The translations under genes were made by a program, and so were the position numbers. The notes beneath the pieces are model-generated. The model did no database searches, was not told the DNA's origin, and worked only from the letters and a program-made list of their open reading frames with translations. From Candidatus Sungiibacteriota bacterium (lineage in GTDB: Bacteria > Patescibacteriota > Minisyncoccia > Sungbacterales > HO2-52-23), in assembly GCA_016432465.1 (NCBI GenBank), contig CP066690.1, positions 250,702 through 314,701 on the forward strand: 64,000 nt of DNA, read 5' to 3'. Below, one piece after another: positions 4,810-62,892 of the stretch (position 1 is the first letter of the stretch; every line of letters begins with the position of its first letter).

Positions 4810-4839
4810 GGGTGCTTAGCTCAGTGGTAGAGTGTCTCG
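4810..4839 (+). pseudogene. tRNA 5' fragment (acceptor 5' strand, D-arm and 5' half of anticodon stem only)
   Basis: GGGTGCTTAGCTCAGTGGTAGAGTGTCTCG has no matching 3' half; flanked by direct repeats of CGT(CA)TTTATTCAC(C/T)CCGTTAGA. Confidence 0.45.
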
Positions 4840-4866
4840 TTTATTCACCCCGTTAGAAATCAAGCT

Positions 4867-4938
4867 GGGCAGTTAGTTCAATGGCAGAACGTCTGTTTTA
4901 CACACAGAAGGTTGTAGGTTCGATTCCTACACTGCCCA
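4867..4938 (+). tRNA. tRNA-Val (anticodon TAC)
   Basis: acceptor GGGCAGT/ACTGCCC, anticodon stem TCTGT/ACAGA with loop TTTACAC, T-arm GTAGG-TTCGATT-CCTAC; flanked by complementary CCCCGTTAGAAAT / ATTTCTAACGGGG. Confidence 0.75.
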
Positions 4939-4984
4939 AATTTCTAACGGGGCAGGCCGAGAAGAGCGGGGGTTCGAATCCCAT

Positions 4985-5040
4985 CATCTTCTTAGACAGA
5001 ACAAAATTCTCCCTTGCGGGGAATTTTGTTCTGTCTTAAA
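4985..5040. repeat. long perfect hairpin (16-bp stem AGACAGAACAAAATTC / GAATTTTGTTCTGTCT)
   Basis: read directly; lies in the 700-bp non-coding tRNA/repeat region. Confidence 0.5.
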
Positions 5041-5235
5041 TGCGTGGGGAATCGAACGGGGAGCAAAGAGTGAATGTCTTCACTCTTTGCGAACCCAGGA
5101 TTTTGCCGAGGGTAAAAAGCAAAAGATTTTGCTTTTTACGGGCTCGCTACATTCACAGCGCGAGTTTACGAGCGTATTGTGAAAGCGAACCCCGGGTTTG
5201 CTGAAGAAGCAAACAAAATCGATTCCCTCAACGCC
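5040..5235 (+). ncRNA. conserved structured element, copy D (family also at 12100-12310, 41905-42115, 43455-43590)
   Basis: shares the 5' motif GTGGGGAATCGAACGGGG, the GTGAATGTCTTCAC hairpin, a GTTTGCT-GAAGAA-GCAAAC hairpin and a 3' CGATTCCC that pairs with the 5' GGGAATCG; helices covary between copies. Confidence 0.4.
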
Positions 5236-5791: not shown

Positions 5792-6460
5792 ATGGAAAAC
5801 ATCTCGCTGGTTCGGTACTCACCTAATGGTGGCGAGCACGAACTCACGGCACAACTCGTGGAGTGCTACCGTGATGTGTTCGCAGATGGGCCGTGGCACG
5901 AATGGCTCAAGTGTCCGCAGTGTCAAAAATATTGGGGTACGAGAGATAGAAGTTTTCTTGCCTCAAACAGGTTTCGCCACTGCAATACGCCACTCGTGGA
6001 CTTCTGGCCACGCGAACAAGTAGTTTGCGATCTTCATCACGAGATTACACTAGAAGCTTCATGTTGGCTTGCCATAAGCAATCTCTCGGTCATCGGTTTT
6101 TGTTGGGGTTACCCAATAACCATCATCGACCTAGAAGCAAAGCTTGGCGTTTCTTTCGGCGCCGAACTTGCATACGAACCCACGGAGCTGGTCGCATATC
6201 AGGATGAAGTAGGCGTCCTTTCTGCCTATCGTGGGCGCAAAATAGCAAAAGCGATGGTCACGCGCCGTCTCGAGGACTTTCTTGCACAAGACTTGAAAGT
6301 TGGAATAGTCAGAACGAGGCAGAGCCCGGAGTCTTCCGAAACCTTCTTGTGGTACACCAACAAGTTGGGCTATCGTATTCTTGCAAACTATCCTGGCGAA
6401 GACGGTAGAGTAGTTCTGGGTCGCAACCTCGATGGCCTCAAAGAATTGCTCGCTCCCTAA
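5792..6460 (+). CDS. putative GNAT-family acetyltransferase with N-terminal Cys4 zinc-ribbon
   Basis: CPQC...HC cluster near the N-terminus; VGVLSAYRGRKIAKAMV resembles GNAT motif A (Q/RxxGxG/A). Confidence 0.45.
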   Translation: MENISLVRYSPNGGEHELTAQLVECYRDVFADGPWHEWLKCPQCQKYWGTRDRSFLASNRFRHCNTPLVDFWPREQVVCDLHHEITLEASCWLAISNLSVIGFCWGYPITIIDLEAKLGVSFGAELAYEPTELVAYQDEVGVLSAYRGRKIAKAMVTRRLEDFLAQDLKVGIVRTRQSPESSETFLWYTNKLGYRILANYPGEDGRVVLGRNLDGLKELLAP

Positions 6461-6480
6461 CGCAACAGCCTTGCGTGATT

Positions 6481-7317
6481 TCACGCAAGGCTGTTTTTCT
6501 TTTCTCCAAACAAAAAGGCTTCTTCACCAACTTTTTCTCGGTTTCGGGCAAAAAGAATAACGGCGGCTTTCTCGGCTCTTATTTCTTGGGTTCCATCTAC
6601 TCCGATAACTTGTCCTTTCGACATTTCTTCAAAATCATCAAACGATTTTGTAAGAATAAATTTGTTGGTTTTTGTTTTGTACAAATCGTACATTCGTATA
6701 TACGATTGTTTTTGTGGCATTAGATCATTTGCAATGTGGTCACGAGCCTTAAGAAATGCGAAAATACTTTTTTCTGCAATCTGTTCTGATTGAGGATTGC
6801 CGAGAAAGCCGCACTCAATGCAAATCCCTATTTTGCCGATACTATTCATGTAGTAGTCGGTGCCGCCAGGCTCTATTTGATCAAAGCCGGACGCAATGCG
6901 TTCAACTGGCAAATACTTAATAATCCCTGTTGCATTTGCTTCGCAAATAACAAAAGGTTTGCTCGTCGACGTGCGACTCGCGTGTATATCCAAAAGTGCT
7001 TCGGCTTTATTCAAATAGGTTTTTAGAAATTGAGCGCGACTATATTCATAACTCTCTTTTTCCTTTTCTGAAAATTGTTCATTGCGATTGAACATTCTAT
7101 TTAGATTGGCCCCTACATATCGCTTATTAGCTTCAACCGCTCGTGGGTTTCCATAGCCAAATAAAACTACCCCGCGCTCAATTTCGAGGGTTGGTAAAAT
7201 TTTTTCCAATGCTTCCAGTCCACATTTTTCATCACCATGCACGCCAACCAGAACGATACTTGTCGTTCCTTTTTCTCGGCCAGTGATTTTAATAATTTCT
7301 TCAAACATTACCGCCAC
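6481..7317 (-). CDS. succinylglutamate desuccinylase / aspartoacylase (AstE/AspA) family zinc hydrolase
   Basis: VHGDEKCG (HGxE zinc-binding motif) near the N-terminus; 278 aa. Confidence 0.7.
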   Translation of the reverse strand: MAVMFEEIIKITGREKGTTSIVLVGVHGDEKCGLEALEKILPTLEIERGVVLFGYGNPRAVEANKRYVGANLNRMFNRNEQFSEKEKESYEYSRAQFLKTYLNKAEALLDIHASRTSTSKPFVICEANATGIIKYLPVERIASGFDQIEPGGTDYYMNSIGKIGICIECGFLGNPQSEQIAEKSIFAFLKARDHIANDLMPQKQSYIRMYDLYKTKTNKFILTKSFDDFEEMSKGQVIGVDGTQEIRAEKAAVILFARNREKVGEEAFLFGEKKNSLA

Positions 7318-8457: not shown

Positions 8458-9357
8458 GTGATAAAACGCATTCTAGCCCTTGTTCTTTTACTTTTTGCGG
8501 CCGGAGCCGGTCCCAGCTTCGCACTTCCGGATATTTTATATACCTATGCCGCTGGTCAGGGTGATAAGTCTGAAAAAAATCCTTCTCTAGCCGGCTTTGG
8601 CGGGCGAGCGTTAACGCTTTGTGTGGAAAAAACGGATCAGAAACTTAATGACATGTCGGTGCGAGATATATCTGACTTGTATAATGAGCGGAGAGTAACC
8701 CTGCCTGACCAGAAAATGCCCGGTTTTGTACGAAACGCCTGCCAACGGGGTCTTCAAGATTTTTTTGGTGAGCTTGAATTTGTAAAAGATATTGCCCGGT
8801 GGCTTGATAGAAACCTTAAATATCTTGTACGAGACCAGCTGGTTATCAGAAAAGATGACGGGAGAACAGATGTGCTTCTGGCGCCGAGCTCTAAAGAACT
8901 TCGGCAACCAACCAGATTTCAGGCAAGATTTAAATTCGGCGTTGACACTGACGGACACAAAATACAAGAGAATAGTTTGGACGGAATAATCACCCCGTCC
9001 TTCAAGTTGAATCTGAACTATGAGAAAGTGGAGTTTAAGCTTCGGCTAAATCCCGTACGACAAACGCTAAACGCCACCTTCGGCCTTGACCATTATCTCT
9101 TTGGGGCTTTGCGTCCTAACCTTGAATACAAAATACGACCCCATGAAGATAATCGCCAAATTTTTGAGATTGGATTTCTGGTTAAACCTGTCCTACCGGA
9201 AGTTGATGTCAGAATGATTACCCAAATTGTTCCCGAAAGACCATCGCATAATCACTTCTCCGGAGTTGGTTTGGTTTGGAAGCTTGACCACTGGGAGTGT
9301 TGGATTGCTCCCTCCTCCTGTCCAAATAAATCCCCCCACCTTCCCACGGGGTTTTGA
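8458..9357 (+). CDS. secreted hypothetical protein (signal peptide); C-terminal ~10 codons and stop supplied by a MITE copy
   Basis: N-terminal MIKRILALVLLLFAAGAGPSFA signal-like segment; the ORF reads into the repeat at 9327. Confidence 0.5.
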   Translation: MIKRILALVLLLFAAGAGPSFALPDILYTYAAGQGDKSEKNPSLAGFGGRALTLCVEKTDQKLNDMSVRDISDLYNERRVTLPDQKMPGFVRNACQRGLQDFFGELEFVKDIARWLDRNLKYLVRDQLVIRKDDGRTDVLLAPSSKELRQPTRFQARFKFGVDTDGHKIQENSLDGIITPSFKLNLNYEKVEFKLRLNPVRQTLNATFGLDHYLFGALRPNLEYKIRPHEDNRQIFEIGFLVKPVLPEVDVRMITQIVPERPSHNHFSGVGLVWKLDHWECWIAPSSCPNKSPHLPTGF

Positions 9358-9436
9358 ACCCTGCGGGAAGGATTTATACGGCACCCATTCATCCCCGCAG
9401 CAAACTGCGGGGTCTTCTAGGAGGGTGGGGGGATAA
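9327..9436. mobile_element. MITE-like palindromic element with TIR ATCCCCCCACCTTCCCA, copy 1
   Basis: terminal inverted repeats AAATCCCCCCACCTTCCC ... GGAGGGTGGGGGGAT; homologous to 38199-38326, 49238-49366, 51536-51643 and 62838-62892. Confidence 0.7.
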
Positions 9437-9525
9437 ATAGTCATCATGATAACATCCGTGCCTCTGGCGCGGATTTAAGTTGAAATAAATTAAAAATCAT
9501 GATATTCTGTCAGACATAACCTTGG

Positions 9526-11976: not shown

Positions 11977-12020
11977 CGGCGTTGTGGCTGACACGGGAGT
12001 CTGTCCCGCTGGTAGACGGC

Positions 12021-12093
12021 GGCGCGATGGCGAAGTAGCTAACGCAGCGGTCTGCAAAACCGCTATTCAGGGGTGCAAATCCCCTTCGCGCCT
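12021..12093 (+). tRNA. tRNA-Cys (anticodon GCA)
   Basis: acceptor GGCGCGA/TCGCGCC, anticodon stem GCGGT/ACCGC with loop CTGCAAA, T-arm AGGGG-TGCAAAT-CCCCT; flanked by complementary GGTAGACGGC / GCCGCCGTCTACC. Confidence 0.7.
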
Positions 12094-12099
12094 TTAGCC

Positions 12100-12310
12100 G
12101 CCGTCTACCTACGGGATTGCGATTTGTTGCCAAAATTTCTTCTCCCGACTGGTCGGGATCGAAATTTTGGACAAATCGGGAACAAAACTCCTATACGCGG
12201 GCTGACGCCAATTGCTTGGCGTCAGCGGGAAATTTAGCGAGCCGGGCGGGCCAGTGCGAGCGTTAAGAATTTCCCAGGGGTTTCGCTGACGAAAGCGAAA
12301 CCAATTCCCG
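12100..12310 (+). ncRNA. conserved structured element, copy A
   Basis: GGGAAATTTAGCGAGCCGGGCGGGCCAGTGCGAGCGTTAAGAATTTCCC hairpin followed by GTTTCGCT-GACGAA-AGCGAAAC hairpin; same architecture as copies B, C and D. Confidence 0.4.
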
Positions 12311-12361
12311 CCCATGCCTCAAAATTTTAGCTGTACCAATCTAAGACAGATACAGAACCTT

Positions 12362-12446
12362 GCCCGGGTGGTGGAATCGGTAGACACTAGGGACTTAAAA
12401 TCCCTTGGAGGCAAACTCCGTGCGAGTTCGAGTCTCGCCCCGGGCA
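12362..12446 (+). tRNA. tRNA-Leu (anticodon TAA), type II
   Basis: acceptor GCCCGGG/CCCGGGC, anticodon stem AGGGA/TCCCT with loop CTTAAAA, variable arm TGGAGGCAAACTCCG, T-arm GCGAG-TTCGAGT-CTCGC. Confidence 0.8.
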
Positions 12447-12509
12447 TAACGAGACTTACCCTGCACCACGTAGGGTGCAGGGTACCCAGCACTCAACGTA
12501 GTGCTGGGT

Positions 12510-12559
12510 AAAATCCCTTGGAGGCAAACTCCGTGCGAGTTCGAGTCTCGCCCCGGGCA
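12510..12559 (+). pseudogene. partial duplicate of the tRNA-Leu(TAA) 3' 50 nt, preceded by two 9-bp-stem hairpins
   Basis: AAAATCCCTTGGAGGCAAACTCCGTGCGAGTTCGAGTCTCGCCCCGGGCA is identical to the 3' portion of the upstream tRNA; no 5' half. Confidence 0.65.
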
Positions 12560-12707
12560 AAACCGCAAAAGAACCCAGAGAAAAACATCCGCCTTCGTTC
12601 CGCCGTCGCTAAAGCTGTGACGGACAAGAAAAACGAATTGGCGATTTCGAAAGAAGAAAAGAAAAAACTTAGATAACAAAAAGCCAACGGGAGTTGGCGA
12701 TAAAAAA

Positions 12708-13151: not shown

Positions 13152-13300
13152 TTTCCGCCTCCTTTGTTAAACTGCACAGTCCTTGAGACTGCTCTGCTAT
13201 TATATTAGTTTATTAAAAGTCTGTCAAGTTTTGCAAAAATTTGCCAAAAGATTTAAGAGAAGAGGATACTTAAGAAAAACACCAGAAACAAAACAGACTT

Positions 13301-13326
13301 CCGTGCGAGTTCGGGTCTCGCCCCGG
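13301..13326 (+). pseudogene. second degenerate copy of the tRNA-Leu 3' end (att-like direct repeat)
   Basis: CCGTGCGAGTTCGGGTCTCGCCCCGG, one mismatch against the tRNA-Leu T-arm/acceptor. Confidence 0.5.
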
Positions 13327-13468
13327 ACACCAACATCGACTCGAAGCATATTTTAATTTTTGGGGGGAAGAAAATTTTTTCATAAAGATTTTTCGACGAT
13401 GATGGTTGTTTTATTCTCAATAGTTTGTAATACTCTTTTTTAGAACACTCAAAACGAGGAAGTGAACC

Positions 13469-22383: not shown

Positions 22384-22602
22384 TTACCGCAGAGATTACC
22401 GGTTTTTCAGGAGTCCGATAATGCTTTTAGTATAGCATATTAGGAGCTATAAGTCAAGCAAACAAAAAAATCAGCATTTCTGCTGTTTCTTGGCCTAAAT
22501 CTTATAAATTCTATGATTAAAAGTTTTTCTTTTCTTCTTTCAAAATCGCCAATTCGTTTTTCTTGTCCGCCAAAGGCGGATCTGCCTTTGGCATGAGGCG
22601 GC

Positions 22603-37707: not shown

Positions 37708-38422
37708 GAAGCGCCGTAGTTGAGGTTAAACTAATAGAGCTTGTAAATTTGGGGCGGGCATAACTTACTTCAACGGTCATACGGACTGCTTCCCGCCCCA
37801 ACCCCTGCGACAAACGTTCCAACCGGAATTTATTAATTTTTACGGAGGCGGCAGAAATGGGAATGGCGGACTGCCCCTCTTGACGCAGCCAAAGCCTGCC
37901 GTTATCAACATAATAATCAACGTAGGCCGCGGCGTGCCCAGCCTGAACCCCAACAACCGTTATCAAAGAAAGCTGGCCGGAATCAATGTTAAAACGGCTC
38001 GTGGGAGAATAAATCTCTCCTGATTGGGCCAGTGACTTGGTTATCGTTTCCAGTAGCAGGCGGCCGTTGGAAAGAACTTCCCGTTCGGCCCGCGCCCGAT
38101 AATAAGCGTTAACCGTATTTATGAAAGAATTCACCACAAAAACAAGAAGCAGGCCCAAAAGCGCCACATAGATTATTATCTCAATAAGGGTAAGCCCTTT
38201 ATCCCCCCACCTTCCCAGAATACCCGCAGCTTGGGAAGTCAGACTTCCCTTGCTGCGGGGATGAATGGGCGCCGTAGAAATCCTTCCCGCGGGGTCCAAT
38301 ACCCCGCTGGGAAGGTGGGGGGATTTATTTTGGCGGTTAATCCTGATCATAGATTTTAAATCCAAAGTCATATTGATCCAGAAGCTGTCCGGAATCACTG
38401 GGGTTAGAAAGCCGACCAACAT
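37694..38422 (-). CDS. type IV pseudopilin (prepilin-type N-terminus KG|LTLIEIIIYVALLGLL) with MITE-derived 5' extension
   Basis: class III signal motif G-LTLIE with E at +5; the roughly 55 codons upstream of the motif lie within MITE copy 2. Confidence 0.6.
   Translation of the reverse strand: MLVGFLTPVIPDSFWINMTLDLKSMIRINRQNKSPHLPSGVLDPAGRISTAPIHPRSKGSLTSQAAGILGRWGDKGLTLIEIIIYVALLGLLLVFVVNSFINTVNAYYRARAEREVLSNGRLLLETITKSLAQSGEIYSPTSRFNIDSGQLSLITVVGVQAGHAAAYVDYYVDNGRLWLRQEGQSAIPISAASVKINKFRLERLSQGLGREAVRMTVEVSYARPKFTSSISLTSTTALRGNY
38199..38326. mobile_element. MITE-like palindromic element, copy 2 (full length, about 128 bp)
   Basis: ATCCCCCCACCTTCCCAGAATACCCGCAGC...GCTGGGAAGGTGGGGGGAT. 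Confidence 0.7.
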
Positions 38423-40210: not shown

Positions 40211-40511
40211 GACTAAATATTACCAAGTGAAGAATAAATCGGCTGCAGCATGGAAATTGCGAAAAAGCCAACTGCTCGTAGCTCGCTCGCCGCAGGCGGC
40301 TCGCTCGTACTCTTCAGAAACCCACGGTTTCCGACGCTCCGCTTCAACAAGCTCAGCGTCGCTGCTTTCCTACTCGGGGAAAACCTTCCGCTTTTCCCCG
40401 ACCCCTTTTTGTGCAGTTGGCTTTTGATCGTCTCTCGCAACATGTTTTAATTAAATATTACCAAGTGAAGAATAAATCGGCTGCAGCATGGAAATTGCGA
40501 AAAAGCCAACT
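40206..40511. repeat. 62-bp direct duplication of the pilC 3' end flanking a 182-bp GC-rich insert
   Basis: AAATATTACCAAGTGAAGAATAAATCGGCTGCAGCATGGAAATTGCGAAAAAGCCAACTGC occurs at 40206-40267 and 40450-40511; the insert contains GCCGCAGGCGGCTCGC. Confidence 0.65.
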
Positions 40512-41686
40512 GCCGCCCCAATGACAATCATAAGAATCGGTTCAATAATTGTAGAGAGATTTTTGGTGGTATTGGTTACGTCCTCCTCAAAAAAAAGGGC
40601 AAGACGCAGCAGCATCTCGGAGACTTTTCCCGTTTCCTCCCCCACTTGTATCATCTGCAGTACAACTGGCTGAAAAATAAGCGGGTGAGCAGCCAGTATC
40701 TTGTTTAGTTGTTTCCCTTTTTGAATTTCCGAAGATGCCTCTCGCACCGCATCTTTATAAATAGTGTTCCCCAAGACCGAAGACGTAATCTCAAGCGACC
40801 TGACGACGGGAACTCCGGAGGTAAGTAAGTAGGCCAGCGTCCGGCAGAAACGCGCAATGTTGAATTTTTTAATAAGCGCTCCGAAAATGGGAAGCTTTAG
40901 ACTTATACGATCAAAGATTTCCTTACCTTTTTGGGTTTTCAATATACGTATAAAAATAAAGACCAGCGCCGCCAAGGCGATTAAAAACCAAATAGCATAG
41001 TTGAGAATCAGGTCGCTAACAGTAACAATGATTTTGGTGGTAAAAGGAAGTTCCACCCCCAACTCTTTGATGGTTGAAGTCAGCGTCGGCACCACATAAA
41101 TCATCATAAGAGTTCCCACGCCGAGCAGAACCATAATAATTATGGCCGGATAAAACATTGCGCCCTTCACCCGTTTTTTAAGGTTGTAATCTTTTTTCAT
41201 CTGGTTGGCAATGAGTTTCAGGACTAATGTAAGTTTTCCTGTTGTTTCGCCCACTTCAACCATGTTTATAAAAAGCGGGCCAAAAACTTTCTCATGCAGA
41301 CGAAGAGAGTCGGCAAAAGATTTGCCTTTTATAACTGAATTGTTTACCTCGGTTAGTATTTTTTTAAACTTGGGGTTGGCTGACTCTTGGGCCAAAGCGT
41401 CTAGAGCGCGTGTCAAAGAAAGTCCGGCCGCGACCATAACCGCAAGATTCCGGGCAAAAAACATTTTGTCCACCACCCCCACGGGCCTAAGACGAGAGAG
41501 AAGATCTGAAATATTAATACTAATATTCCACGAAGCCAGCCCAGTTTTTCCTTTTTCTTTGGCTTCCAGCAGAAAAAGCCCTTCGGTTTTGAGGGTCTGC
41601 GCAAGGACTTTTTGGTTTTCCGCCTCGCGTTCCCCTTTTACTATTTTCCCATCTTTTGCCGCGGCGGAATATACATAAATAGGCAT
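40451..41686 (-). CDS. pilC: type IV pilus assembly platform protein PilC (GspF family)
   Basis: 411 aa, two GspF-like repeats with 3 TM segments; N-terminal MPIYVYSAAAKDGKIVKGE typical. Confidence 0.85.
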   Translation of the reverse strand: MPIYVYSAAAKDGKIVKGEREAENQKVLAQTLKTEGLFLLEAKEKGKTGLASWNISINISDLLSRLRPVGVVDKMFFARNLAVMVAAGLSLTRALDALAQESANPKFKKILTEVNNSVIKGKSFADSLRLHEKVFGPLFINMVEVGETTGKLTLVLKLIANQMKKDYNLKKRVKGAMFYPAIIIMVLLGVGTLMMIYVVPTLTSTIKELGVELPFTTKIIVTVSDLILNYAIWFLIALAALVFIFIRILKTQKGKEIFDRISLKLPIFGALIKKFNIARFCRTLAYLLTSGVPVVRSLEITSSVLGNTIYKDAVREASSEIQKGKQLNKILAAHPLIFQPVVLQMIQVGEETGKVSEMLLRLALFFEEDVTNTTKNLSTIIEPILMIVIGAAVGFFAISMLQPIYSSLGNI

Positions 41687-41835: not shown

Positions 41836-41849
41836 ATTTTGTGGAAATT

Positions 41850-41896
41850 TTGAGGTGGTTCTTTAGAATTATCTCAAAATTTCCACTGATTAGATG
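41850..41896 (+). terminator. terminator-like perfect hairpin (14-bp stem GTGGAAATTTTGAG..CTCAAAATTTCCAC)
   Basis: read directly downstream of tRNA-Ser. Confidence 0.5.
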
Positions 41897-41904
41897 ATGG
41901 TGGG

Positions 41905-42115
41905 ATTCGAAGGGGCGAAAGCTAAAGGCTTTCGCGGGAAATTTAGCGAGCCAGTGAAACTGTGCGAGCGTTAAAAATTTCCCGGGGTTTGCCGAGGAGG
42001 CAAACTGAAAAACGTGAATGTCTTCACGTTTTGAAAACCCGGGCTCCGAAGGAGCGTGTAGCCGTGCGAAGCACGTGCGCAACGCGGGTGAGGAGGAATC
42101 CCACCCCCACCGCCA
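41905..42115 (+). ncRNA. conserved structured element, copy B; its 3' end duplicates the last 16 nt of tRNA-Ser(GCT)
   Basis: 5' GGTGGGATTCGAAGGGG; GGGAAATTT...AAATTTCCC hairpin; GTTTGCC-GAGGAG-GGCAAAC hairpin; CGTGAATGTCTTCACG hairpin; 3' GGAATCCCACCCCCACCGCCA. Confidence 0.45.
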
Positions 42116-43454: not shown

Positions 43455-43590
43455 GGTGGGTTCGCCTAATGGGTTGAAGCCAACTGCTTGGCTTCAACGG
43501 GCGATTTAGGCGAGCGTCCTCGCGAGCCGTTAAAAATCGCCCCGGGTTTCGCCGAGGAGGCGAAACGACACCAGTCTTCCCCGCACTACA
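43455..43590 (+). ncRNA. conserved structured element, copy C
   Basis: GGGCGATTT...AAATCGCCC hairpin (compensatory changes relative to GGGAAATTT/AAATTTCCC in copies A and B) and GTTTCGCC-GAGGAG-GGCGAAAC hairpin. Confidence 0.45.
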
Positions 43591-43596
43591 ATTTTG

Positions 43597-43671
43597 GAAG
43601 CGTGGCCGAGCGGTTTATGGCGCTGGTCTTGCCCGCCAGAGGCGGGTCCGCCTTTGGCGGAAAAACTACTT
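43597..43671 (+). pseudogene. tRNA-Ser-like 5' half fused to the 40-nt double-hairpin repeat (copy 1)
   Basis: GGAAGCGTGGCCGAGCGGTTTATGGCGCTGGTCTTGCCCGCCAGAGGCGGGTCCGCCTTTGGCGGAAAAACT has no T-arm or 3' acceptor. Confidence 0.5.
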
Positions 43672-43929
43672 ATGGCTATAACATACATTTTATTTAGTTC
43701 CAGTTGCGGTAAATTTTATGTTGGTTCTTCACGAAATGATAATATACGGGTTCGCCTTTCTGCCCACAATGCCGGACGAGTAAAATCTACTAAATCCTAT
43801 AGACCGTGGACTATTGTTACAACAGAAAAACTTCAGAGCTATTCTGATGCCAGAAAAAGAGAACTGTTTCTCAAGTCAGGTGTTGGGCGAAAATTGATAG
43901 CAGAGAAATTTGGATTTTTGAAAAGTTAA
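43672..43929 (+). CDS. GIY-YIG nuclease-domain protein (UPF0213/YhbQ-like), copy 1
   Basis: YILFSS..GKFYVGSSRN...RLSAHNAG....T....PW.IV..E......A..RE..LKS..GR pattern; real start at MAITYIL. Confidence 0.65.
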   Translation: MAITYILFSSSCGKFYVGSSRNDNIRVRLSAHNAGRVKSTKSYRPWTIVTTEKLQSYSDARKRELFLKSGVGRKLIAEKFGFLKS

Positions 43930-43950
43930 TATGTGTGGCGGGCTTGGTAG

Positions 43951-44023
43951 GGTGGCCGAGTGGTTTAAGGCGGCGGTCTTGCCCGCCAGAGGCGGGTCCG
44001 CCTTTGGCGGAAAAACTCAATAG
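43951..44023 (+). pseudogene. tRNA-Ser-like 5' half fused to the 40-nt double-hairpin repeat (copy 2)
   Basis: GGTAGGGTGGCCGAGTGGTTTAAGGCGGCGGTCTTGCCCGCCAGAGGCGGGTCCGCCTTTGGCGGAAAAACT. Confidence 0.5.
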
Positions 44024-44024
44024 T

Positions 44025-44315
44025 ATGCCCTGTATTTATATCTTATATAGCAGAAGTAAAAATAGGTTTTATGTCGGATCAACTAGAGACGATAGGCCTT
44101 TTGTGCGTTTAGACTCACACAACCATGGAAAGGTTCGCTCTACAAAAGCCGGACGGCCGTGGGCACTGACATACCAAGAGTACTACTCCAATTACCATCA
44201 AGCGAGGAAAAGAGAAATCTTCTTAAAATCCGGTGTTGGTAGGACTTGGATTAAAGAAAAATTTCCAAATCTAAAGAACGACGGCGCCGGAGCGGAGACG
44301 TGGGTGAGTGGCTGA
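44025..44315 (+). CDS. GIY-YIG nuclease-domain protein (UPF0213/YhbQ-like), copy 2
   Basis: MPCIYILYSRSKNRFYVGSTRDD...RLDSHNHGKVRSTKAGRPWALTYQEYY..YHQARKREIFLKSGVGR; its 3' end overlaps tRNA-Ser(TGA). Confidence 0.6.
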   Translation: MPCIYILYSRSKNRFYVGSTRDDRPFVRLDSHNHGKVRSTKAGRPWALTYQEYYSNYHQARKREIFLKSGVGRTWIKEKFPNLKNDGAGAETWVSG

Positions 44316-44390: not shown

Positions 44391-44470
44391 GTCTTGCCCG
44401 CCAGAGGCGGGTCCGCCTTTGGCGGAAAAACTGGCGGGAGAAATCCCTTGCAGGTTCGACTCCTGCACCC
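44391..44470 (+). repeat. 40-nt double-hairpin repeat (copy 3) followed by a tRNA T-arm/acceptor 3' fragment
   Basis: TCTTGCCCGCCAGAGGCGGGTCCGCCTTTGGCGGAAAAACT then CTTGCAGGTTCGACTCCTGCACCCACCG. Confidence 0.5.
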
Positions 44471-49237: not shown

Positions 49238-49366
49238 TTATCCCCCCACCTTCCCAGAATACCCTACAGCTTGGGAAGTCAGACTTCCCTTGCTGCGGGG
49301 ATGAATGGGTGCCGTAGAAATCCTTCCCGAGGGGTCCAACACCCGCTGGGAAGGTGGGGGGATTTA
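49238..49366. mobile_element. MITE-like palindromic element, copy 3
   Basis: about 95% identical to copy 2, same orientation. Confidence 0.7.
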
Positions 49367-49370
49367 TTTT

Positions 49371-49431: not shown

Positions 49432-51537
49432 ATGGCTGACATCCGTATCCACACCCCCATAGAGCAAGTCCCGGCCATCAGGAAAAGGATCATTCCGTCC
49501 CTGAAGCGTCTGGGTATAAAAACCATACGCGATCTTTTGTTTCATTTTCCTTCGCGCTACGAAGATTTTTCAAATTTAAAAACAGTCCAAACCCTTGAGG
49601 CCGGCGAAACGGTCACTATCCAAGGATACGTGAAAAGAGTAACCAATCGCCGGACTCCCCGAAAAAGAATGTTTTTAACCGAAGCCGTAATAAATGACGG
49701 AACGGGAAATATAAAAGCCCTGTGGTTCAACCAGCCCTTTCTCGTAAGAAACATAAAATCCGGAAACATAGTGAGTTTGTCGGGCAAAGTAGCGTGGGGG
49801 CAGGGCGGATTGTATCTTCAGAATCCTGCCTACGAGAGAATTCATAATTCAGAGTTTAAAACAACTAGTTCACAAGGAACACATACCGGAGGACTGGTGG
49901 CTATGTATCCGGAAACGGAAGGTATTTCTTCCCGCTGGTTAAGATATCTTATAAAGTCGTTCCTGAGCTTTAGGAAGGAACTTGCTGATCCCCTTCCTTC
50001 GGAGACTAGAAAAAGACACATGCTGTCCGATATTTATACGGCCTTGCAAAACATTCATTTCCCCCAAAACACACAAGAGGCGGAGGGGGCACGCCGCAGG
50101 TTTAGTTTTGAACAGATGCTTTTTATACAGCTTCGGGCCCTGAAAGAACGTATGCGCCTCAAAAAATTCAGCGCACCAGCTATTTCCTTGAATCTCCCGC
50201 TCCTGAAAAAATTTGTAAACTCTCTTCCCTATGAGCTAACCGACGCCCAACGCCGTTCCGTCTGGGAAATTGTGCAGGATATTTCCAAACCCCGCCCTAT
50301 GAACCGCCTGCTGGAAGGAGACGTAGGGTCCGGCAAAACAGTAGTTGCGGCTGCGGCTTCACTCCTTGCTATTCAGGAGGGGTACGAAGTCGCCTTTATG
50401 GCGCCGACAGAGATTCTTGCCAAGCAGCACTACTCAACGCTTGAAAAAATATTACACCCTTTTGGGGTTCGGGTTGGACTTCTTACCGGATCCGAAAAAA
50501 ACAAACGTAGTAACACCCTGCTCTGTGTAGGAACTCACGCCTTAATACAAAAAAACGCCCACTTTAAAAATCTGGGGTTGGTGATTGTTGATGAACAGCA
50601 TCGTTTTGGCGTGGAGCAACGCGCCCAGCTTGCCAAAAACAGTTCCGGTTCCCTTCCCCATTTCTTGTCTATGAGCGCCACACCCATCCCCCGGACATTG
50701 GCTCTCACCGTATATGGAGATCTTGACCTTTCTATACTGGACGAGCTGCCTAAAAACCGCAGGGAAATTATTACTAAAATTATCGGGCCCGGGAAACGGG
50801 AAGAAACATATCAATTCATCCGGGAAGGGGTGAAGCGGGGGGGACAGGCGTTTGTGATTTGCCCGAGAATAGAAGTCGGGGGTCAGGGATTGAAAATCGG
50901 AAAAATATCCCAACAGAAACTGCTTCTGGCCGACACCAAGACCGTGAAAGAGGAATATAAAAAACTATCCGAGAAAATTTTCCCGGATTTAAATGTGGGC
51001 ATACTCCACGGAAAGATGCCCGCCAAAGGCGGGTCCGCCTCCGGCGGAAAATCAAAAGAGCAAACTATGAAAGAATTCAAAGAAGGTAAGATAGATATTC
51101 TCGTCTCCACGTCGGTGGTGGAAGTAGGGGTGGACATACCCAACGCCACCATCATGGTGATTGAGGGAGCGGAAAAGTTTGGGCTGGCCCAACTTCATCA
51201 ATTTCGCGGTCGTGTGGGCAGAGGCGAACATCAATCTTACTGCTTCCTTTTTCCCACCGAGAATGGACTTGTAACCAAGCGGCTTAGGGCAGTGGTGGAG
51301 GCCAAGAACGGGTTTGAACTGGCAGAAAAAGATCTGGAAATCCGGGGGCCGGGAGACTTATTTGGCATACGCCAATGGGGAGTTCCGGACGTTGTATTGG
51401 CTGACATAAACAATGCCCGCCTGGTACGGGAAGTACGCGTTGCGGCCTTGGAGCTTATTAAAAAAGACCCTTCTTTGACCGGCTACCCCTTACTTTTGGA
51501 AGAACTCAAGCGCAGCCACACCCTTCATCTTGAATAA
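49432..51537 (+). CDS. recG: ATP-dependent DNA helicase RecG (carries an in-frame 12-aa repeat-derived insertion)
   Basis: wedge domain N-terminus; helicase motif I GDVGSGKT, motif II DEQHRFG; 701 aa; residues PAKGGSASGGKS are encoded by the double-hairpin repeat at 51017-51056. Confidence 0.9.
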   Translation: MADIRIHTPIEQVPAIRKRIIPSLKRLGIKTIRDLLFHFPSRYEDFSNLKTVQTLEAGETVTIQGYVKRVTNRRTPRKRMFLTEAVINDGTGNIKALWFNQPFLVRNIKSGNIVSLSGKVAWGQGGLYLQNPAYERIHNSEFKTTSSQGTHTGGLVAMYPETEGISSRWLRYLIKSFLSFRKELADPLPSETRKRHMLSDIYTALQNIHFPQNTQEAEGARRRFSFEQMLFIQLRALKERMRLKKFSAPAISLNLPLLKKFVNSLPYELTDAQRRSVWEIVQDISKPRPMNRLLEGDVGSGKTVVAAAASLLAIQEGYEVAFMAPTEILAKQHYSTLEKILHPFGVRVGLLTGSEKNKRSNTLLCVGTHALIQKNAHFKNLGLVIVDEQHRFGVEQRAQLAKNSSGSLPHFLSMSATPIPRTLALTVYGDLDLSILDELPKNRREIITKIIGPGKREETYQFIREGVKRGGQAFVICPRIEVGGQGLKIGKISQQKLLLADTKTVKEEYKKLSEKIFPDLNVGILHGKMPAKGGSASGGKSKEQTMKEFKEGKIDILVSTSVVEVGVDIPNATIMVIEGAEKFGLAQLHQFRGRVGRGEHQSYCFLFPTENGLVTKRLRAVVEAKNGFELAEKDLEIRGPGDLFGIRQWGVPDVVLADINNARLVREVRVAALELIKKDPSLTGYPLLLEELKRSHTLHLE
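51017..51056 (+). repeat. 40-nt double-hairpin repeat, copy 4, inserted in frame inside recG
   Basis: GATGCCCGCCAAAGGCGGGTCCGCCTCCGGCGGAAAATC versus the consensus CTTGCCCGCCAGAGGCGGGTCCGCCTTTGGCGGAAAAACT. Confidence 0.65.
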
Positions 51538-51643
51538 ATCCCCCCACCTTCCCAGCGGGGTATTGGACCCCGCGGGAAGGATTTCTACGGCGCCCATTCA
51601 CCCCCACAGCTTGCTGCGGGGTATTCTGGGAAGGTGAGGGGAT
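51536..51643. mobile_element. MITE-like palindromic element, copy 4 (opposite orientation, internal deletion)
   Basis: AAATCCCCCCACCTTCCCAGCGGGGTATTGGACCCCGCGGGAAGG...GGGAAGGTGAGGGGAT directly after the recG stop. Confidence 0.7.
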
Positions 51644-51684
51644 AAAATTAAAACACGGCTCTGTGACAGCCGTGCTTCGGAAAC

Positions 51685-53015: not shown

Positions 53016-54566
53016 CTAAACAATGAGCCGTTCCTTAAGAATTTTTTTAATTAGTTCTTCGGCCCTACGAAGCGCTTGTGTATTACTCCTGCCCGTGGGA
53101 TCGTTATTAACTGCGGCAGGATCAAACGACATCAGTATTATGTGTGACCACGAATGTCCAAGGGGCGCAAGCAGACGATTGCGGCGCGCCTGCCTTAATA
53201 CTTCCACCCGCCAAGCAGCACGAGTGGCCGGAGGATGTTTACGTGCTTCTGCAACTTCCTCGTCGGAAAAAAGCGTTTCCACGCGGCCCGAACGTACAAG
53301 CTGCGGCCAAATTCCCCAGTCGTCCAAAGCGGTTAATTGATGGTGCAGCATTAGTAAATACTCACTAAGTGAAATTTGCTTGCCGTGATGTTCTATCCTT
53401 ACTTCATGGCAAGCATCCCACGAAGTGTTGTACTGGGCGAGCTTTTTTTCAAAAAGCAAGTATTTAAACCAGCATTCGGAAACACCGGCAAGGAGGGTTG
53501 GGTCCTGCCCCAAAAGCCGGAGAATTTCTTCAAACCGATACAGCACGTCCTGGTCTTCAGCAGTAAGAGAGAGTTTATCTGCGTTTTCCCAAATTAATTC
53601 CAGATACCGCCTTTGAACTTCAAGGGCCGTGAGGGTTATGGCCGAAGCAAAATGTATGGGGGTTTTAAGTGTCGGATCACACGCTAAAATATGAAAGTCG
53701 TTAAGAATTTCTCTGTACTGATATGTCTCAAACCTAGGAAAACAGCGCGGAAAGCAGTTGTTGGCTAGGAGCCGTAGAACCAAGCTGGTCATGCCAGCTT
53801 CTACGTAAGTAATGGTGTCAGAAAGCAAGGGATCGCCCTCAATAAGCTGCAGACGCTTCCATTGGGGTAAATCGTATGATTTGTAATCTGAAAAACGGCC
53901 TGTACAGATAAGTGGACGGCGAACCGTGGTTTCACTTGAAATAGTCCCCTGAATTGCCAGCGCCCGCGGAGAAAGAGTAAAAATAATTTCCTTATCGGAG
54001 TTTGGCCAAGAGTCCAAATTTTTAGGTCCGTACAAACGAGGAGCAATGCCGCCCTGTCCTGCCCAAACAACCTTGGTCACCAGAAACGGGCCAAGATAAC
54101 TAAGCAAAAATTCGTTGGGAATACGTTGCGGTATGCGGAAATTACGGTGCAAACCCCACCAATTACCACGCCAATCGGTGCTAGCCTTTAAAAGGTGGTA
54201 CGAACCCTGCGGCAGGGAAAATCGTTTGGGGTTTTGGCAAACTCTTAAAAATCGGCCTAGAATTTCAGCATCAGCGGCGCGGCTGTAAAGTGCGGCCTCA
54301 CGCGCCCCACGGCATTCCGGCGTAGCTGCCTCCAAATGGTGATAAAAACCACGCCTCAACTCTTGAGATACACGCAGCGGATGATCAATATAAATGCGGC
54401 CGCCCATGGAATTTTCATAATCAAGAACGCGATGGTCTATTAAACATTCAGTGGCTTGTTTTAAAACAGTGCGGTAAGTCAGTTCGGGTAAGGACGTGCC
54501 GTCTTCGGGGGTAAAACTTATAGCAAATTCCTGCTCAAAACCAATAATAACGTCTTCGGGCAACAT
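53016..54566 (-). CDS. Pup-ligase/deamidase (PafA/Dop) family protein, paralog 3
   Basis: N-terminal IIGFEQEFAI (compare PafA IMGIETEFG), ATPECRG (compare PafA ATAECDS), C-terminal SDEEVAEARKHPPATRAAWR (compare PafA [22 protein letters not shown]). Confidence 0.7.
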   Translation of the reverse strand: MLPEDVIIGFEQEFAISFTPEDGTSLPELTYRTVLKQATECLIDHRVLDYENSMGGRIYIDHPLRVSQELRRGFYHHLEAATPECRGAREAALYSRAADAEILGRFLRVCQNPKRFSLPQGSYHLLKASTDWRGNWWGLHRNFRIPQRIPNEFLLSYLGPFLVTKVVWAGQGGIAPRLYGPKNLDSWPNSDKEIIFTLSPRALAIQGTISSETTVRRPLICTGRFSDYKSYDLPQWKRLQLIEGDPLLSDTITYVEAGMTSLVLRLLANNCFPRCFPRFETYQYREILNDFHILACDPTLKTPIHFASAITLTALEVQRRYLELIWENADKLSLTAEDQDVLYRFEEILRLLGQDPTLLAGVSECWFKYLLFEKKLAQYNTSWDACHEVRIEHHGKQISLSEYLLMLHHQLTALDDWGIWPQLVRSGRVETLFSDEEVAEARKHPPATRAAWRVEVLRQARRNRLLAPLGHSWSHIILMSFDPAAVNNDPTGRSNTQALRRAEELIKKILKERLIV

Positions 54567-54618
54567 AAAACCACCCGGTTTTCAGGAACTAGTTATAGCA
54601 TAGGAGTGTTTAGAAATT

Positions 54619-56268
54619 TTACAAGCTTTGGTGCTGATTACTCCGGGGATTGCGTAATTTTGGCGTCACCCAAAAACTCATGTATTTCCCCAGCATTAAA
54701 CGAGTTTGCGCGTCAATCCCCGGAACAGAACCAAAAGTAATAATAGTCAGGGGAAGAAACGCCCACTGCAATATCATAGAAAGCCAAAGATACTTTTTTT
54801 TATGGGGCGGGCGGGGCGGAAGAAGAGAAGAAGAAATAATAGCAGAGGTTATAATACCAGCCATGGAAAGCGTCATTAAAAGTCTGGTAATACGCGGGAG
54901 ATTATAAGAAAGAACTGTCACGTTAAATTTGGCGCCGCCAAGAATCAGGGGCAGCCAACCCAGAAGAAAAATAATCAGGGCGTTGGTCGCCCAAGACCAA
55001 AAACCCTCAAGTTGTACAAAAGACCAGTAAAGCTTTGGACGAAAAGAGATTTTTTTATTTTTTAGAAAACCAAACACAAGATACGGAAAATTTTCCACTC
55101 CCCAGCCCCAACGCCGCTGTTGTTTATATACATTTTTAACGGTCTCCCCCAATGTACGTCCGACGTTGGCATCCATGGAAACCGGATAAAAAAGCGGGAC
55201 CGTCCTCCAGTCTCCGTCATAAAAAAGAAGCGACTGCCAAAAAATACGGGAGTCTTCGGATACAATGTTGGTTTGCCAATAGTTCATTTCAACCAAGGGC
55301 TTGAGCGGTATGGAATGCGAAGAAAACGTGGAAAGACGCTCGGCTCGCGCCTGCTGCATCATCTGCCAAAAAGTGCCGGAGGAGGCCACCACTCGCGAAA
55401 AAAAAGGCGCATCCCAAATGTTGTTATTATAAATAGGAATCGGCTGATAAGAGGAGCGAAGCGGATGCGCGGTTGTCAGATAATGATATGTTATTACCCC
55501 GAAATAATGCGGATAAATGCGTGTATCAATGTCAAAAGATGAAACTAAAACCTGCTCGTATTGAATTCCCAGACTATCAATAATTTTTTCTTTGGCCTCT
55601 CTTGCGGCCCATGTTTCGTTGGCCCCCTTCCCCGGAATTTCGCCCGCAATATCAGTCGGGTGCTCGCTTATTATAAATTTAAAAAAGGACCTGCTAAATT
55701 CCTGTCCAAGGCGACTGGCTATGAATCTTGCTTCCTCTCCGGCCCGCTCCTCTACGCCCAAGACTAAAATAATTTTATCTTTAGGGTAATGCGCCTGTTG
55801 GATCGCTTCCAGAGATCCGCGCACCACCCCATACGGCTCTTTATAAAAGGGTAAAATAACCAGATGGTAGATATCGCGCCAGTTTTCTACTTTAAGTTGC
55901 GGGTTGTAAGCCCTAATCTCCTCAAGTTTCGCCAACCAGTCCAATTTTAAATGCTGCTTCATCTTTTTGTAGCTGGCGCGGAGATGCCAAGATAGAAATA
56001 TGGTTTTGAGAAGCCAGTAAGCGTCAAAAATAACAATAAAAAGGCTCGCCGCAGCCGGTGCGCGCCAGGAAATAAAAATAATACCGGCCAGGGTGGCCCA
56101 GAGCATTATGCCGGGAACTGTTTCCAAAAATCTAAAAAGGTAGTATCCGCGTGCTAACGAAACATCAGCGGCCCGTCCCAATCTAAAGTAATTTTTTTTC
56201 TCCATGGTACGTTTAGCGTTACATATTGAGTTATAAAAATCAAAAATGTCGGGAGTAAAACCCGACAA
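54619..56268 (-). CDS. membrane-integrated family-2 glycosyltransferase (processive, cellulose-synthase-like)
   Basis: QxxRW motif (YKQQRRWGWG); D,D-type GT-A core between N- and C-terminal TM bundles; 549 aa. Confidence 0.65.
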   Translation of the reverse strand: MSGFTPDIFDFYNSICNAKRTMEKKNYFRLGRAADVSLARGYYLFRFLETVPGIMLWATLAGIIFISWRAPAAASLFIVIFDAYWLLKTIFLSWHLRASYKKMKQHLKLDWLAKLEEIRAYNPQLKVENWRDIYHLVILPFYKEPYGVVRGSLEAIQQAHYPKDKIILVLGVEERAGEEARFIASRLGQEFSRSFFKFIISEHPTDIAGEIPGKGANETWAAREAKEKIIDSLGIQYEQVLVSSFDIDTRIYPHYFGVITYHYLTTAHPLRSSYQPIPIYNNNIWDAPFFSRVVASSGTFWQMMQQARAERLSTFSSHSIPLKPLVEMNYWQTNIVSEDSRIFWQSLLFYDGDWRTVPLFYPVSMDANVGRTLGETVKNVYKQQRRWGWGVENFPYLVFGFLKNKKISFRPKLYWSFVQLEGFWSWATNALIIFLLGWLPLILGGAKFNVTVLSYNLPRITRLLMTLSMAGIITSAIISSSLLPPRPPHKKKYLWLSMILQWAFLPLTIITFGSVPGIDAQTRLMLGKYMSFWVTPKLRNPRSNQHQSL

Positions 56269-56293
56269 GATTGCGATTAAACGGCGGATAAAC

Positions 56294-57985: not shown

Positions 57986-58084
57986 AATATAAATAAAGCG
58001 CCAGAGCTCTGCTCTGGCTTTTGGGGCTTACTAAGACCTCTTGTACAATAACCCTTCGTAACGAAAGTTATTATGCAAAAGTCT

Positions 58085-58321
58085 TTACTCGCCACCTCTT
58101 TGTACGTAACTTCTTACAAACTCCTCCGCGTTTCCTTCCAACGTTGCATCAATATCTTCCAGAAGTTTATCCATATCTTCTTTTAGCTTCTTGCTTTTTT
58201 TCTCAGCGGCCTGACTGACTTTTTCTTCTTCGCTTTCTGGCTTGTCCTTTACTTTTTCTGCGTTCTTTTGCTCTTCCGCCACTTCTGCCTCCCTTTGGTG
58301 GCCCTTATTGAAGTTTAACAC
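58085..58321 (-). CDS. pup: Pup-like prokaryotic ubiquitin-like protein ending in GGE
   Basis: 78 aa, disordered acidic/lysine-rich body; C-terminus MDKLLEDIDATLEGNAEEFVRSYVQRGGE parallels the Pup consensus ...DDLLDEIDGVLE.NAEEFVRAYVQKGGQ/E. Confidence 0.75.
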   Translation of the reverse strand: MLNFNKGHQREAEVAEEQKNAEKVKDKPESEEEKVSQAAEKKSKKLKEDMDKLLEDIDATLEGNAEEFVRSYVQRGGE

Positions 58322-58357
58322 AGCGCCGTAAATAATGCAATCCGATATCCAATAGAT

Positions 58358-60220: not shown

Positions 60221-60272
60221 GTGTAACCACAGCCGAAAGAAAAATCCACCCTAGGGGGTGGATCAATTGATT

Positions 60273-62837: not shown

Positions 62838-62892
62838 TAAATCCCCCTCCTTCCCAGCAGGGTATTGGACCCCGCGGTAAGGTGGGGGGATA
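62838..62892. mobile_element. MITE-like element, copy 5 (55-bp deletion derivative retaining both TIRs)
   Basis: AAATCCCCCTCCTTCCCAGCAGGGTATTGGACCCCGCGGTAAGGTGGGGGGATAAA. Confidence 0.6.

Follow-up and report, generated by a model that had tools for sequence, protein, structure and literature searches.

What kind of genetic entity is a short, intricately folded sequence that recurs inside the remains of tRNA genes, and how does it come to reside there? This question is posed by a 64,000-nucleotide (nt) stretch of the Candidatus Sungiibacteriota bacterium genome (assembly GCA_016432465.1, contig CP066690.1, positions 250,702 to 314,701 of the forward strand), hereafter the window, which represents 64 kb of a 923-kb genome. 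An initial annotation, made from the letters of the window, had proposed a structured element of about 200 nt in four copies (A to D), and four related structured copies are indeed present at those places. The folding z-scores of the four stretches against dinucleotide shuffles are -9.1, -5.8, -5.7, and -5.1, and a covariance model (R1), built from 29 homologues and run over the whole window with filters off, returns exactly these four matches, all on the + strand, the next match reaching 16 bits. They are members of a previously undescribed family of three-hairpin DNA/RNA modules of Patescibacteria, each about 95 nt in length. The element is real and statistically solid, but it is not one RNA of about 200 nt: the homologous part, hereafter the core, spans only 95–100 nt, and the rest is host tRNA debris and other hairpin modules.

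We lean toward reading the core as a non-autonomous, structure-defined insertion module of Patescibacteria that lives in dead tRNA-gene fragments and is mobilized in trans. The genomes of these organisms are small and streamlined, yet the tRNA loci of the window are onion-like, with live genes nested in dead ones and the dead layers colonized by a mini-element undescribed in databases. If mobile, the core would represent a new non-autonomous family whose target, the loops of tRNA-like hairpins, is unusual; if it is a functional RNA, it would constitute a widespread new RNA motif of Patescibacteria. Either way, it accounts for fragments of tRNAs and strange "structured RNAs" by which intron surveys and the annotation of tRNAs in the phylum will be misled, and the covariance model, together with empty and filled sites, provides a handle for studying tRNA gene replacement in these organisms.

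The conserved unit and its fold

The consensus of the core, GG-G[H1]C-GGG[H2]CCC-nGGG-TTT[H3]AAA-C, arranges three hairpins (H1 to H3) around a G-rich junction. A degenerate pattern derived from the core (GCGAGC..GCGAGCSKTWA..GGGTTT) was scanned against public genome and metagenome collections and yielded about 30 distinct true homologues, which originate from metagenome-assembled genomes (MAGs) of Saccharibacteria or other Patescibacteria, or from groundwater and sediment metagenomes. Homologous or orthologous loci in these other genomes and metagenomes are denoted by L-numbers (L005, L091, and so on). The cores in the window are as follows.

5110-5214, + strand: core A; R1 score 38.7 bits, E 1e-6; H2 divergent ("type 2"), H1 and H3 normal
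12199-12301, + strand: core B; R1 score 90.5 bits; the inserted DNA is 12202-12301 (100 nt)
41913-42006, + strand: core C; R1 score 78 bits
43471-43566, + strand: core D; R1 score 101 bits

That these hairpins are maintained by compensatory change, as the initial annotation had claimed, is borne out at the level of the family. RNAalifold predicts 25 base pairs from 29 copies, 15 of them with double compensatory changes; in a model-based alignment of 34 copies, standard pairs occupy 97.2% of cells and 20 of the 25 pairs have changed on both sides. These values are attained by none of 500 shuffles of the 34-copy alignment, and sliding the partners by 1–3 columns reduces pairing to only 30–55%. 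Thus, selection on the fold is strongly supported by covariation. The sequence of H1 is hypervariable, single columns showing as many as four or five pair types. H2 forms a long rod in which, judging from the sequences, two GCGAGC repeats are able to pair antiparallel across tandem G.A/A.G, and its tip is commonly a GNA triloop closed by C-G. H3 consists of TTT-stem, purine-rich loop, and stem-AAA. The hairpins can be exchanged as modules, as exemplified by the L012 and L018 cores of a single MAG, which have identical H2 and unrelated H1, amounting to module shuffling within a genome. The divergent H2 of core A has relatives in L005, L080, and L082; the initial annotation had mixed up the copies in describing this internal hairpin, as AAATTT occurs in the second and third and CGATTT in the fourth.

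Two candidate signals within the core were considered and rejected. A promoter is incompatible with the TTTAG-to-TAAAAA spacing, which varies from 19 to 27 nt, and a translation signal in the H3 loop would find a suitably spaced ATG only in L018.

Beyond the core, each copy is embedded in other structured sequence. The terminal stem formerly described as shared is no part of the element and consists of tRNA T-arm/acceptor sequence that differs at each site. The sequence said to be common to two copies is present as the 14-mer GTGAATGTCTTCAC, at 5070 in copy A and 42014 in copy C. The composites and host sequences around the four cores, on which the following sections draw, are these.

5042-5234, + strand: composite around core A; z-score of the minimum-free-energy fold -9.1; terminal stem 5042-5055 with 5219-5234
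12178-12320, + strand: host of core B; 3′ remnant of an older tRNA-Cys, from the anticodon loop to the 3′ end
41899-42112, + strand: composite around core C; fold z-score -5.7; 5′ arm GGTGGGATTC at 41899-41908
43455-43578, + strand: host of core D; 5′ part of an outer dead tRNA-Ser(TGA), acceptor strand GGTGGGT
44392-44465, + strand: 3′ part of the same outer tRNA-Ser, ending in the acceptor strand ACCCACC plus G

The terminal stem of the copy A composite pairs a tRNA-Val-like 3′ end (TCGATTCCCTCAACGC) with its own complement, and encloses a hairpin at 5063-5090 that contains GTGAATGTCTTCAC, followed by the core. In the copy C composite, the core is followed by a hairpin at 42009-42032 (GTGAATGTCTTCAC) and two more at 42043-42087, and the 3′ arm at 42096-42112 is an exact duplicate of the tRNA-Ser(GCT) 3′ end. 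The initial annotation was right that such a duplicate exists; it measures 17 nt, and it ends the third copy rather than the one labeled B. A "CCA" after this duplicate was entertained as the signature of a retro-copy and rejected, being orthologous genomic flank; L083 likewise ends in ...CCCACCGCCAG. The same layout as in copy C recurs in L068, whose homologue adjoins the tmRNA gene.

Could the core belong to an RNA class that is already known, or reflect chance or recent duplication? The tRNA genes of Patescibacteria commonly carry group I introns at anticodon position 35/36 (PMC13011429), and the core shares with these introns the phylum and the kind of host gene; the remnants that host it mostly break near 35/36, and copies lie inside tRNA sequences, with 5′ flanks similar to the 5′ ends of tmRNAs (GGATTCGAAGGGG). 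Nevertheless, an origin from a group I intron, a tmRNA or tRNA-like gene, a ribozyme, chance, or segmental duplication is essentially refuted. The Rfam covariance search called for earlier returned no family match: gathering-threshold searches with Rfam 15 over the whole window and 12 homologous loci find only tRNAs and one tmRNA (L068), and at E<=10 or E<=5 nothing relevant, including Intron_gpI and tmRNA, appears around copies A, C, D, and L059. ARAGORN and Rfam call no tRNA or tmRNA over the window copies, which are flanked by tRNA fragments only. As an intron, the core is far too small (95–100 nt against a P3-P9 core of more than about 200 nt), has no RF00028 match at E<=10, lies in D or T loops, and does not restore a tRNA when removed; the last nucleotide of the 5′ remnants ahead of the break is G or A rather than U. 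A copy C-type composite as a tmRNA paralogue is rejected as well, the tmRNA 5′ end of L068 being unlike the 5′ arm, which is an inverted copy of the tmRNA 3′ end. The window copies are mutually 32–69% identical and lie in different hosts, and each has a relative 84–96% identical in another genome, which excludes recent segmental duplication; the shuffled alignments speak against chance.

The core as a discrete inserted segment

The initial annotation missed a behavior that is central to the question, namely, that the core is a discrete inserted segment: an empty and a filled site, a nested core, and a near-identical core in unrelated flanks are all found. In L092 and L093, which are distant relatives, the region downstream of rbfA carries a tRNA-Cys followed, 12–17 nt on, by tRNA-Leu(TAA), with neither remnants nor core. 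The closest relative, L091 (RbfA 78% identical), has a tRNA cassette of the type described in the next section and both tRNA-Cys remnants, without the core. Its 3′ remnant retains an intact T loop (...CATACGCGGG-TG-CAATTCCCGCC...), so that the empty site reads GCGGG-TG-CAATTCCCGCC, whereas the filled site in the window reads GCGGG-[100 nt]-CAATTCCCGCC, with 12202-12301 in place of "TG". By eye count, the identity of the two remnants is about 88% to the left as well as to the right of the insertion, the comparison having been made by eye as the MAFFT alignment misplaced the gap. The intact T loop in L091 and the filled site in the window together imply that the remnant is older and that core B entered it later. 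The comparison reveals no target duplication, and core B is closed by the T stem of its host (GCGGG/CCCGC, 12197-12201 with 12307-12311).

Core D lies in the D loop of its host after TAATGG, and the host, which reads GGTGGGTTCGCCTAATGG-core-..ACCAGTCTT, stops in the anticodon loop (..CAGTCTT). Core D shares 95.8% identity with the core of L076, which lies in unrelated flanks, and the similarity ends exactly at GGG and AAAC. The orthologous locus in L082 has the same flanks and holds an array of modules of about 290 nt in the D loop, against one core in the window. In L038, one core (4954-5043) is nested in another, directly after its CGGG and beside a tandem copy. The nested L038 core and the near-identical L076 core also indicate mobility. 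Across sites, the insert constantly follows directly on a GG or GGG, terminates 3′ in a C, removes two to three loop nucleotides, and has the sense orientation. As such, the core behaved as a discrete inserted segment, in one orientation, after GG/GGG in a hairpin loop; the targets seen are the D loop, T loop, and variable arm of tRNA or tmRNA fragments, the loops of other palindromes, and another copy of the core. It has no terminal inverted repeats of its own, and the site-specific terminal stems are host-derived.

In most homologues, the host is a tRNA 5′ fragment, and the core immediately follows the conserved G18-G19 of its D loop, as exemplified by L011 (GGGCGCTTAGCTCAGTGG, then the core from G to C, then AGCG). 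The D-loop host fragment ends in the anticodon loop in L005, L011, L022, L026, L033, L039, L046, L050, L060, L061, L067, and L080. The T loop of a tRNA-Cys 3′ fragment hosts the core in L048 and window copy B, and the variable arm of a tRNA-Leu 3′ fragment in L064. In window copies A and C and in L068 (tmRNA), the composite is bracketed by the 3′ end of the neighboring tRNA or tmRNA and an inverted copy of it. Excising the core from 34 sites, in 12 variants each, restored no tRNA recognized by ARAGORN across the site; the tRNA and tmRNA hosts examined are thus always fragments. Within host tRNA fragments the core is always in the sense orientation, and all four window cores lie in dead outer layers of tRNA loci. 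The copies had been described as lying directly 3′ of tRNA genes or fragments; the association with tRNAs stands, the position being inside tRNA-derived fragments, and a protein gene precedes the fourth copy, which occupies the D loop of the tRNA-Ser 5′ fragment.

In L013, L059, and L076, the core occupies the hairpin loop of another foldback element with terminal stems of 22–26 bp. This structured element of about 240 nt (L059 2095-2345, L076 6865-7105, L013 about 6400-6700 on the minus strand) has a terminal stem whose sequence is unrelated from copy to copy and a conserved ACAATGGGAGG...CCGACCCTTAGCGAGG; it has no Rfam match at gathering thresholds in the three loci and none at E<=5 around L059.

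A functional noncoding RNA domain, expressed in tRNA operon transcripts and serving, for instance, in protein binding or in processing and stability, is the main alternative, though a rather unlikely one, that would make the copies paralogous RNA genes without selfish spread, with tRNA remnants and other hairpins merely supplying promoters, closing stems, and processing sites. It would account for the strong covariation and for the conservation of the unpaired G-rich junction and GCGAGC motifs across distant lineages, for subfamilies common to several genomes whose copies within a genome are diverged with no young copies among them, for an intact same-strand tRNA gene no more than 250 nt downstream of 17 of 30 cores, and for the residence of the L059, L076, and L013 copies in an apparently independent intergenic structured unit; the G.U excess and the terminator-like hairpins described below are further points in its favor. 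What it does not readily accommodate is the variation between orthologous loci, with no core (L091) or one core (window) at the B locus and one core or a module array at the D locus; the tandem, truncated, and nested copies in L038 and H1-only versions in L083; the inconsistent host scaffold (D loop, T loop, variable arm, or none); and the lack of association with any gene class among the open reading frames (ORFs) around 26 cores. Between the two possibilities raised by the initial annotation, a functional RNA or a DNA hairpin recognized by a Y1/HUH-type enzyme, the evidence cannot decide, and discrete insertion favors the mobile-hairpin side.

Several observations weigh against an insertion module mobilized in trans. 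The conserved unpaired junction nucleotides and the deep covariation among distant Patescibacteria would also fit a functional RNA. On the + strand, the stems contain 19 G.U against about 7 A.C pairs, and in L012 and L068 the element is followed by a GC-rich hairpin and a T run, an intrinsic terminator by eye. The G.U excess, the sense orientation, the GNA triloops of H2, and the terminator-like hairpins are compatible with the + strand acting as RNA or single-stranded DNA and do not distinguish between these. The hosts in L012, L018, and L025 contain no recognizable tRNA remnant. No near-identical pair of copies was seen within one genome, in the 64 kb of the 923-kb genome that is visible, and the window copies are old paralogues, unlike an active burst of miniature inverted-repeat transposable elements (MITEs). 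No integrase, transposase, or reverse transcriptase was found by Pfam among 82 ORFs lying no more than 3.5 kb from 26 cores, nor among 71 ORFs of the window, 20 of them scanned singly and 51 as a set; HUH enzymes and other recombinases were equally missing from both, which for the window agrees with the earlier statement that no Y1/HUH enzyme is encoded there. Both scans show housekeeping genes, the sole nuclease genes being two small GIY-YIG ORFs that were inserted with duplicated tRNA-Ser 5′ halves and adjoin copy D. Finally, microhomology-driven gene conversion between tRNA remnants, requiring no dedicated enzyme, may explain the spread.

Nested tRNA loci and their cassettes

The dead layers in which the cores reside belong to tRNA loci of a distinctive architecture. 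The window contains 16 tRNA genes in 64 kb (ARAGORN). Intact tRNAs near cores are enclosed by inverted repeats that start with YCCCG and end with CGGGR, such as CCCCGTTAGAAAT...ATTTCTAACGGGG around tRNA-Val(TAC) at 4848-4953 and TCCCGCTGGTAGACGGC...GCCGTCTACCTACGGGA around tRNA-Cys at 12004-12116. Each such cassette interrupts, at the anticodon loop, an older tRNA gene belonging to the same amino-acid family, and is flanked by the 5′ and 3′ parts of that gene. The tRNA-Cys locus, delineated from the sequence and by ARAGORN, illustrates the arrangement.

11978-12116, + strand: tRNA-Cys "onion", comprising the parts below
11978-12003, + strand: 5′ remnant of the older tRNA-Cys
12004-12020, + strand: left inverted repeat (TCCCGCTGGTAGACGGC)
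12021-12093, + strand: intact tRNA-Cys
12100-12116, + strand: right inverted repeat

The acceptor strands of the flanking remnants still match in L033 (CGGGCTG/CAGCCCG), L011 (GGGCGCT/AGCGCCC), and L082 (GGAGGGT/ACCCTCC), and at the D locus of the window, where GGTGGGT at 43455 has its complement in ACCCACC at 44458-44464. One live tRNA-Ser(GCT) in L083 is surrounded by four 5′ and three 3′ remnants, and the relative of this locus, L085, has a bare tRNA gene. Such loci are best described as "onions" that probably arose by serial replacement of tRNA genes.

Cassette loci of this kind were noted at 4810-4993 and 11978-12116 of the window and in L033, L061, L011, L022, L039, L080, L082, and L091. 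The left repeat holds a -10-like TAGAAAT or TAAAAT, 6–10 nt before the tRNA, and the whole arrangement looks like a self-replacing tRNA gene cassette. L050 and L060 are orthologous loci, with tRNA-Val(GAC) upstream of rplS, in reciprocal arrangements: one has a remnant of allele X and an intact Y, the other a remnant of Y and an intact X, and the core lies in the D loop of the remnant both times.

Could the core be the site, or the scar, of such exchanges? A structure-specific recombination site akin to integron attC, in which H1 stays with the 5′ remnants and GGG-H3-C with the 3′ remnants, seems improbable. It draws on L083, where the four tRNA-Ser 5′ remnants carry only G-H1-C in the D loop (one also has a short H2) and two 3′ remnants start with GGG-hairpin-C followed by tRNA positions 21-76, on the frequent proximity of cores to inverted-repeat cassettes with intact tRNAs, and on the conserved structure and unrelated sequence of H1, as in attC. 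However, an integrase was not found among the ORFs of the window or those near 26 cores, and conserved boxes of the GTTRRRY type are missing, the corresponding motif varying between GTTAAAA and GTAAAAA. Furthermore, core B entered a pre-existing remnant after the cassette event and is not the junction of that event, which makes a role as recombination site less likely. In L050, as in L060, the two flanks of the core are parts of one remnant allele, which likewise rejects the core as the left edge of an incoming tRNA cassette.

Other insertions have accumulated in and around the same loci. The 3′ part of the outer tRNA-Ser at the D locus contains a 29-nt two-hairpin module inside its anticodon loop (between TCTTG and AAAAC). 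Upstream of the intact tRNA-Ser, 43596-44315 comprises two tandem units, each made up of a tRNA-Ser(TGA) 5′ half that ends in ..TCTTG (35/36), a motif of two hairpins, and a short GIY-YIG gene (at 43672-43929 in one unit and at 44025-44315 in the other, where it overlaps the start of the tRNA); the L082 orthologue is without both GIY-YIG genes. A second family of hairpin modules, TGCCCGCCAGAGGCGGGTCCGCCTTTGGCGGAAAAAC, occurs at 43630-43673, 43980-44023, 44395-44438, and 51017-51060, with weaker members at 22564 and 33114; the copy at 44395 lies inside the anticodon loop of the dead tRNA-Ser, between TCTTG and AAAAC. The 3′ part of tRNA-Leu(TAA) (12396-12450) has two extra copies downstream, at 12509-12563 (55 nt, 98% identical) and 13300-13329 (93% over 30 nt), which look like integration scars. 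Long, near-perfect hairpins of unique sequence (14–19 bp) directly follow tRNA or tmRNA genes or remnants at 4996-5038, 12121-12177, and 41841-41886 of the window and at 6123-6163 of L068; that at 12121-12177 has another hairpin in its loop and is seemingly flanked by duplicated CGGGA.

Possible mobilization in trans, related systems, and neighboring features

How might an insertion module of this kind spread and persist? Insertion lands after GG(G) in the loop of a hairpin-forming target, replacing two to three loop nucleotides. Survival of the core would be confined to dead tRNA copies, since interruption of a live tRNA gene would kill the cell, and dead copies would be abundant if inverted-repeat-bounded cassettes repeatedly enter the anticodon loop of the resident homologous tRNA gene and leave nested remnants. 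The stems may be kept since the folded single strand, as DNA or RNA, is recognized for copying by a trans-acting factor, presumably encoded elsewhere, or since folding makes the insert tolerated. The element would be passively co-transcribed with neighboring tRNAs. A bolder version, which we hold to be quite unlikely, is that the module is a structure-recognizing mobile element that invades tRNA-elbow loops (D, T, and variable arm) and other hairpin loops by an RNA-level or single-strand mechanism, alongside a new self-replacing tRNA cassette system that serially overwrites resident genes. It could employ insertion resembling reverse splicing, or guide-like pairing of the 5′ arm with the T-loop/T-stem strand (copies A and C; L068).

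No description of the element or of nested tRNA cassettes was found in the literature searched, and comparison with known systems places the core closest, in its behavior, to REP/BIME or IS200/IS605-derived miniature elements, while it has the defining sequence features of none. Like the REP/BIME system (REPINs and the Y1/HUH enzyme RAYT), the core family consists of short noncoding extragenic hairpin repeats with stems kept by compensatory change, mosaic or tandem modules, and, presumed for the core, passive transcription and dependence on an enzyme encoded elsewhere in the genome. In contrast, a REP is an imperfect palindrome of 20–40 nt with a 5′ tetranucleotide of the GTAG type, whereas the core is a 95-nt three-hairpin unit with a conserved G-rich junction and no GTAG; it lies inside tRNA-derived hairpin loops rather than at operon ends, its copies are strongly diverged in the visible part of the genome, and no RAYT or Y1 enzyme was found in the 64-kb window and the surroundings of 26 other copies. 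With IS200/IS605-derived elements (PATEs), it shares the absence of terminal inverted repeats and target duplications (L091 against the window; flanks of 30 copies), subterminal hairpins, a fixed orientation 3′ of a short sequence, and a presumed recognition as single strands. It differs in that the target is only GG(G) in a hairpin loop and two to three target nucleotides are lost ("TG" at B), where IS200/IS605 elements insert precisely 3′ of a conserved tetra- or pentanucleotide and keep all target bases, that the hairpins abut the ends and leave no room for the guide and cleavage-site geometry of IS608, and that no TnpA or TnpB was seen in the window or near 26 other cores.

Other mobile elements are more distant. 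Classical MITEs are bounded by terminal inverted repeats common to the whole family and by a target-site duplication of fixed length; the core has no such repeats, and its B site shows no duplication. The Rickettsia palindromic elements (RPEs), which Ogata and colleagues reportedly described in 2000 as small palindromic selfish elements persisting in functional genes, offer a parallel in their residence inside genes for structured macromolecules at insertion-tolerant positions; unlike these, every tRNA or tmRNA host examined of the core is a dead fragment. Integron attC sites resemble the core in having a hairpin that keeps its structure while its sequence varies, and in their link to gene cassettes, which in the present case are tRNA genes, but the core has neither integrase nor R/L boxes nor an ordered cassette array, its variable GTTAAAA/GTAAAAA is present once, and at the B locus its insertion followed the cassette event. 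An origin from phage, or as an attP site, was rejected, as neither a true core nor an inverted-repeat cassette occurs in the viral contigs of IMG/VR.

The window also contains genes and repeats of other kinds. It encodes a short IF-2, RbfA, RecG, T2SS-F/PilC, and HisRS (Pfam). Families of repeats of about 100 nt with CCTTCCCGCGGGGT...ACCCCGCGGGAAGG palindromes lie at 9332-9437, 51541-51646, and 62843-62882, and at 38227-38330 and 49267-49370. A perfect 62-nt direct repeat, with its two copies (40214-40275 and 40452-40513) 238 nt apart, takes in the 3′ end of the T2SS-F gene as well as the end of a small ORF downstream. On the minus strand, 53016-62201 carries three paralogues of the Pup-ligase family and a proteasomal-type AAA ATPase. 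In L082, a gene with a faint LAGLIDADG-family match (Pfam LAGLIDADG_3) occupies 1806-2861 between T2SS-F and tRNA-Ser(GCT), where the window has nothing.

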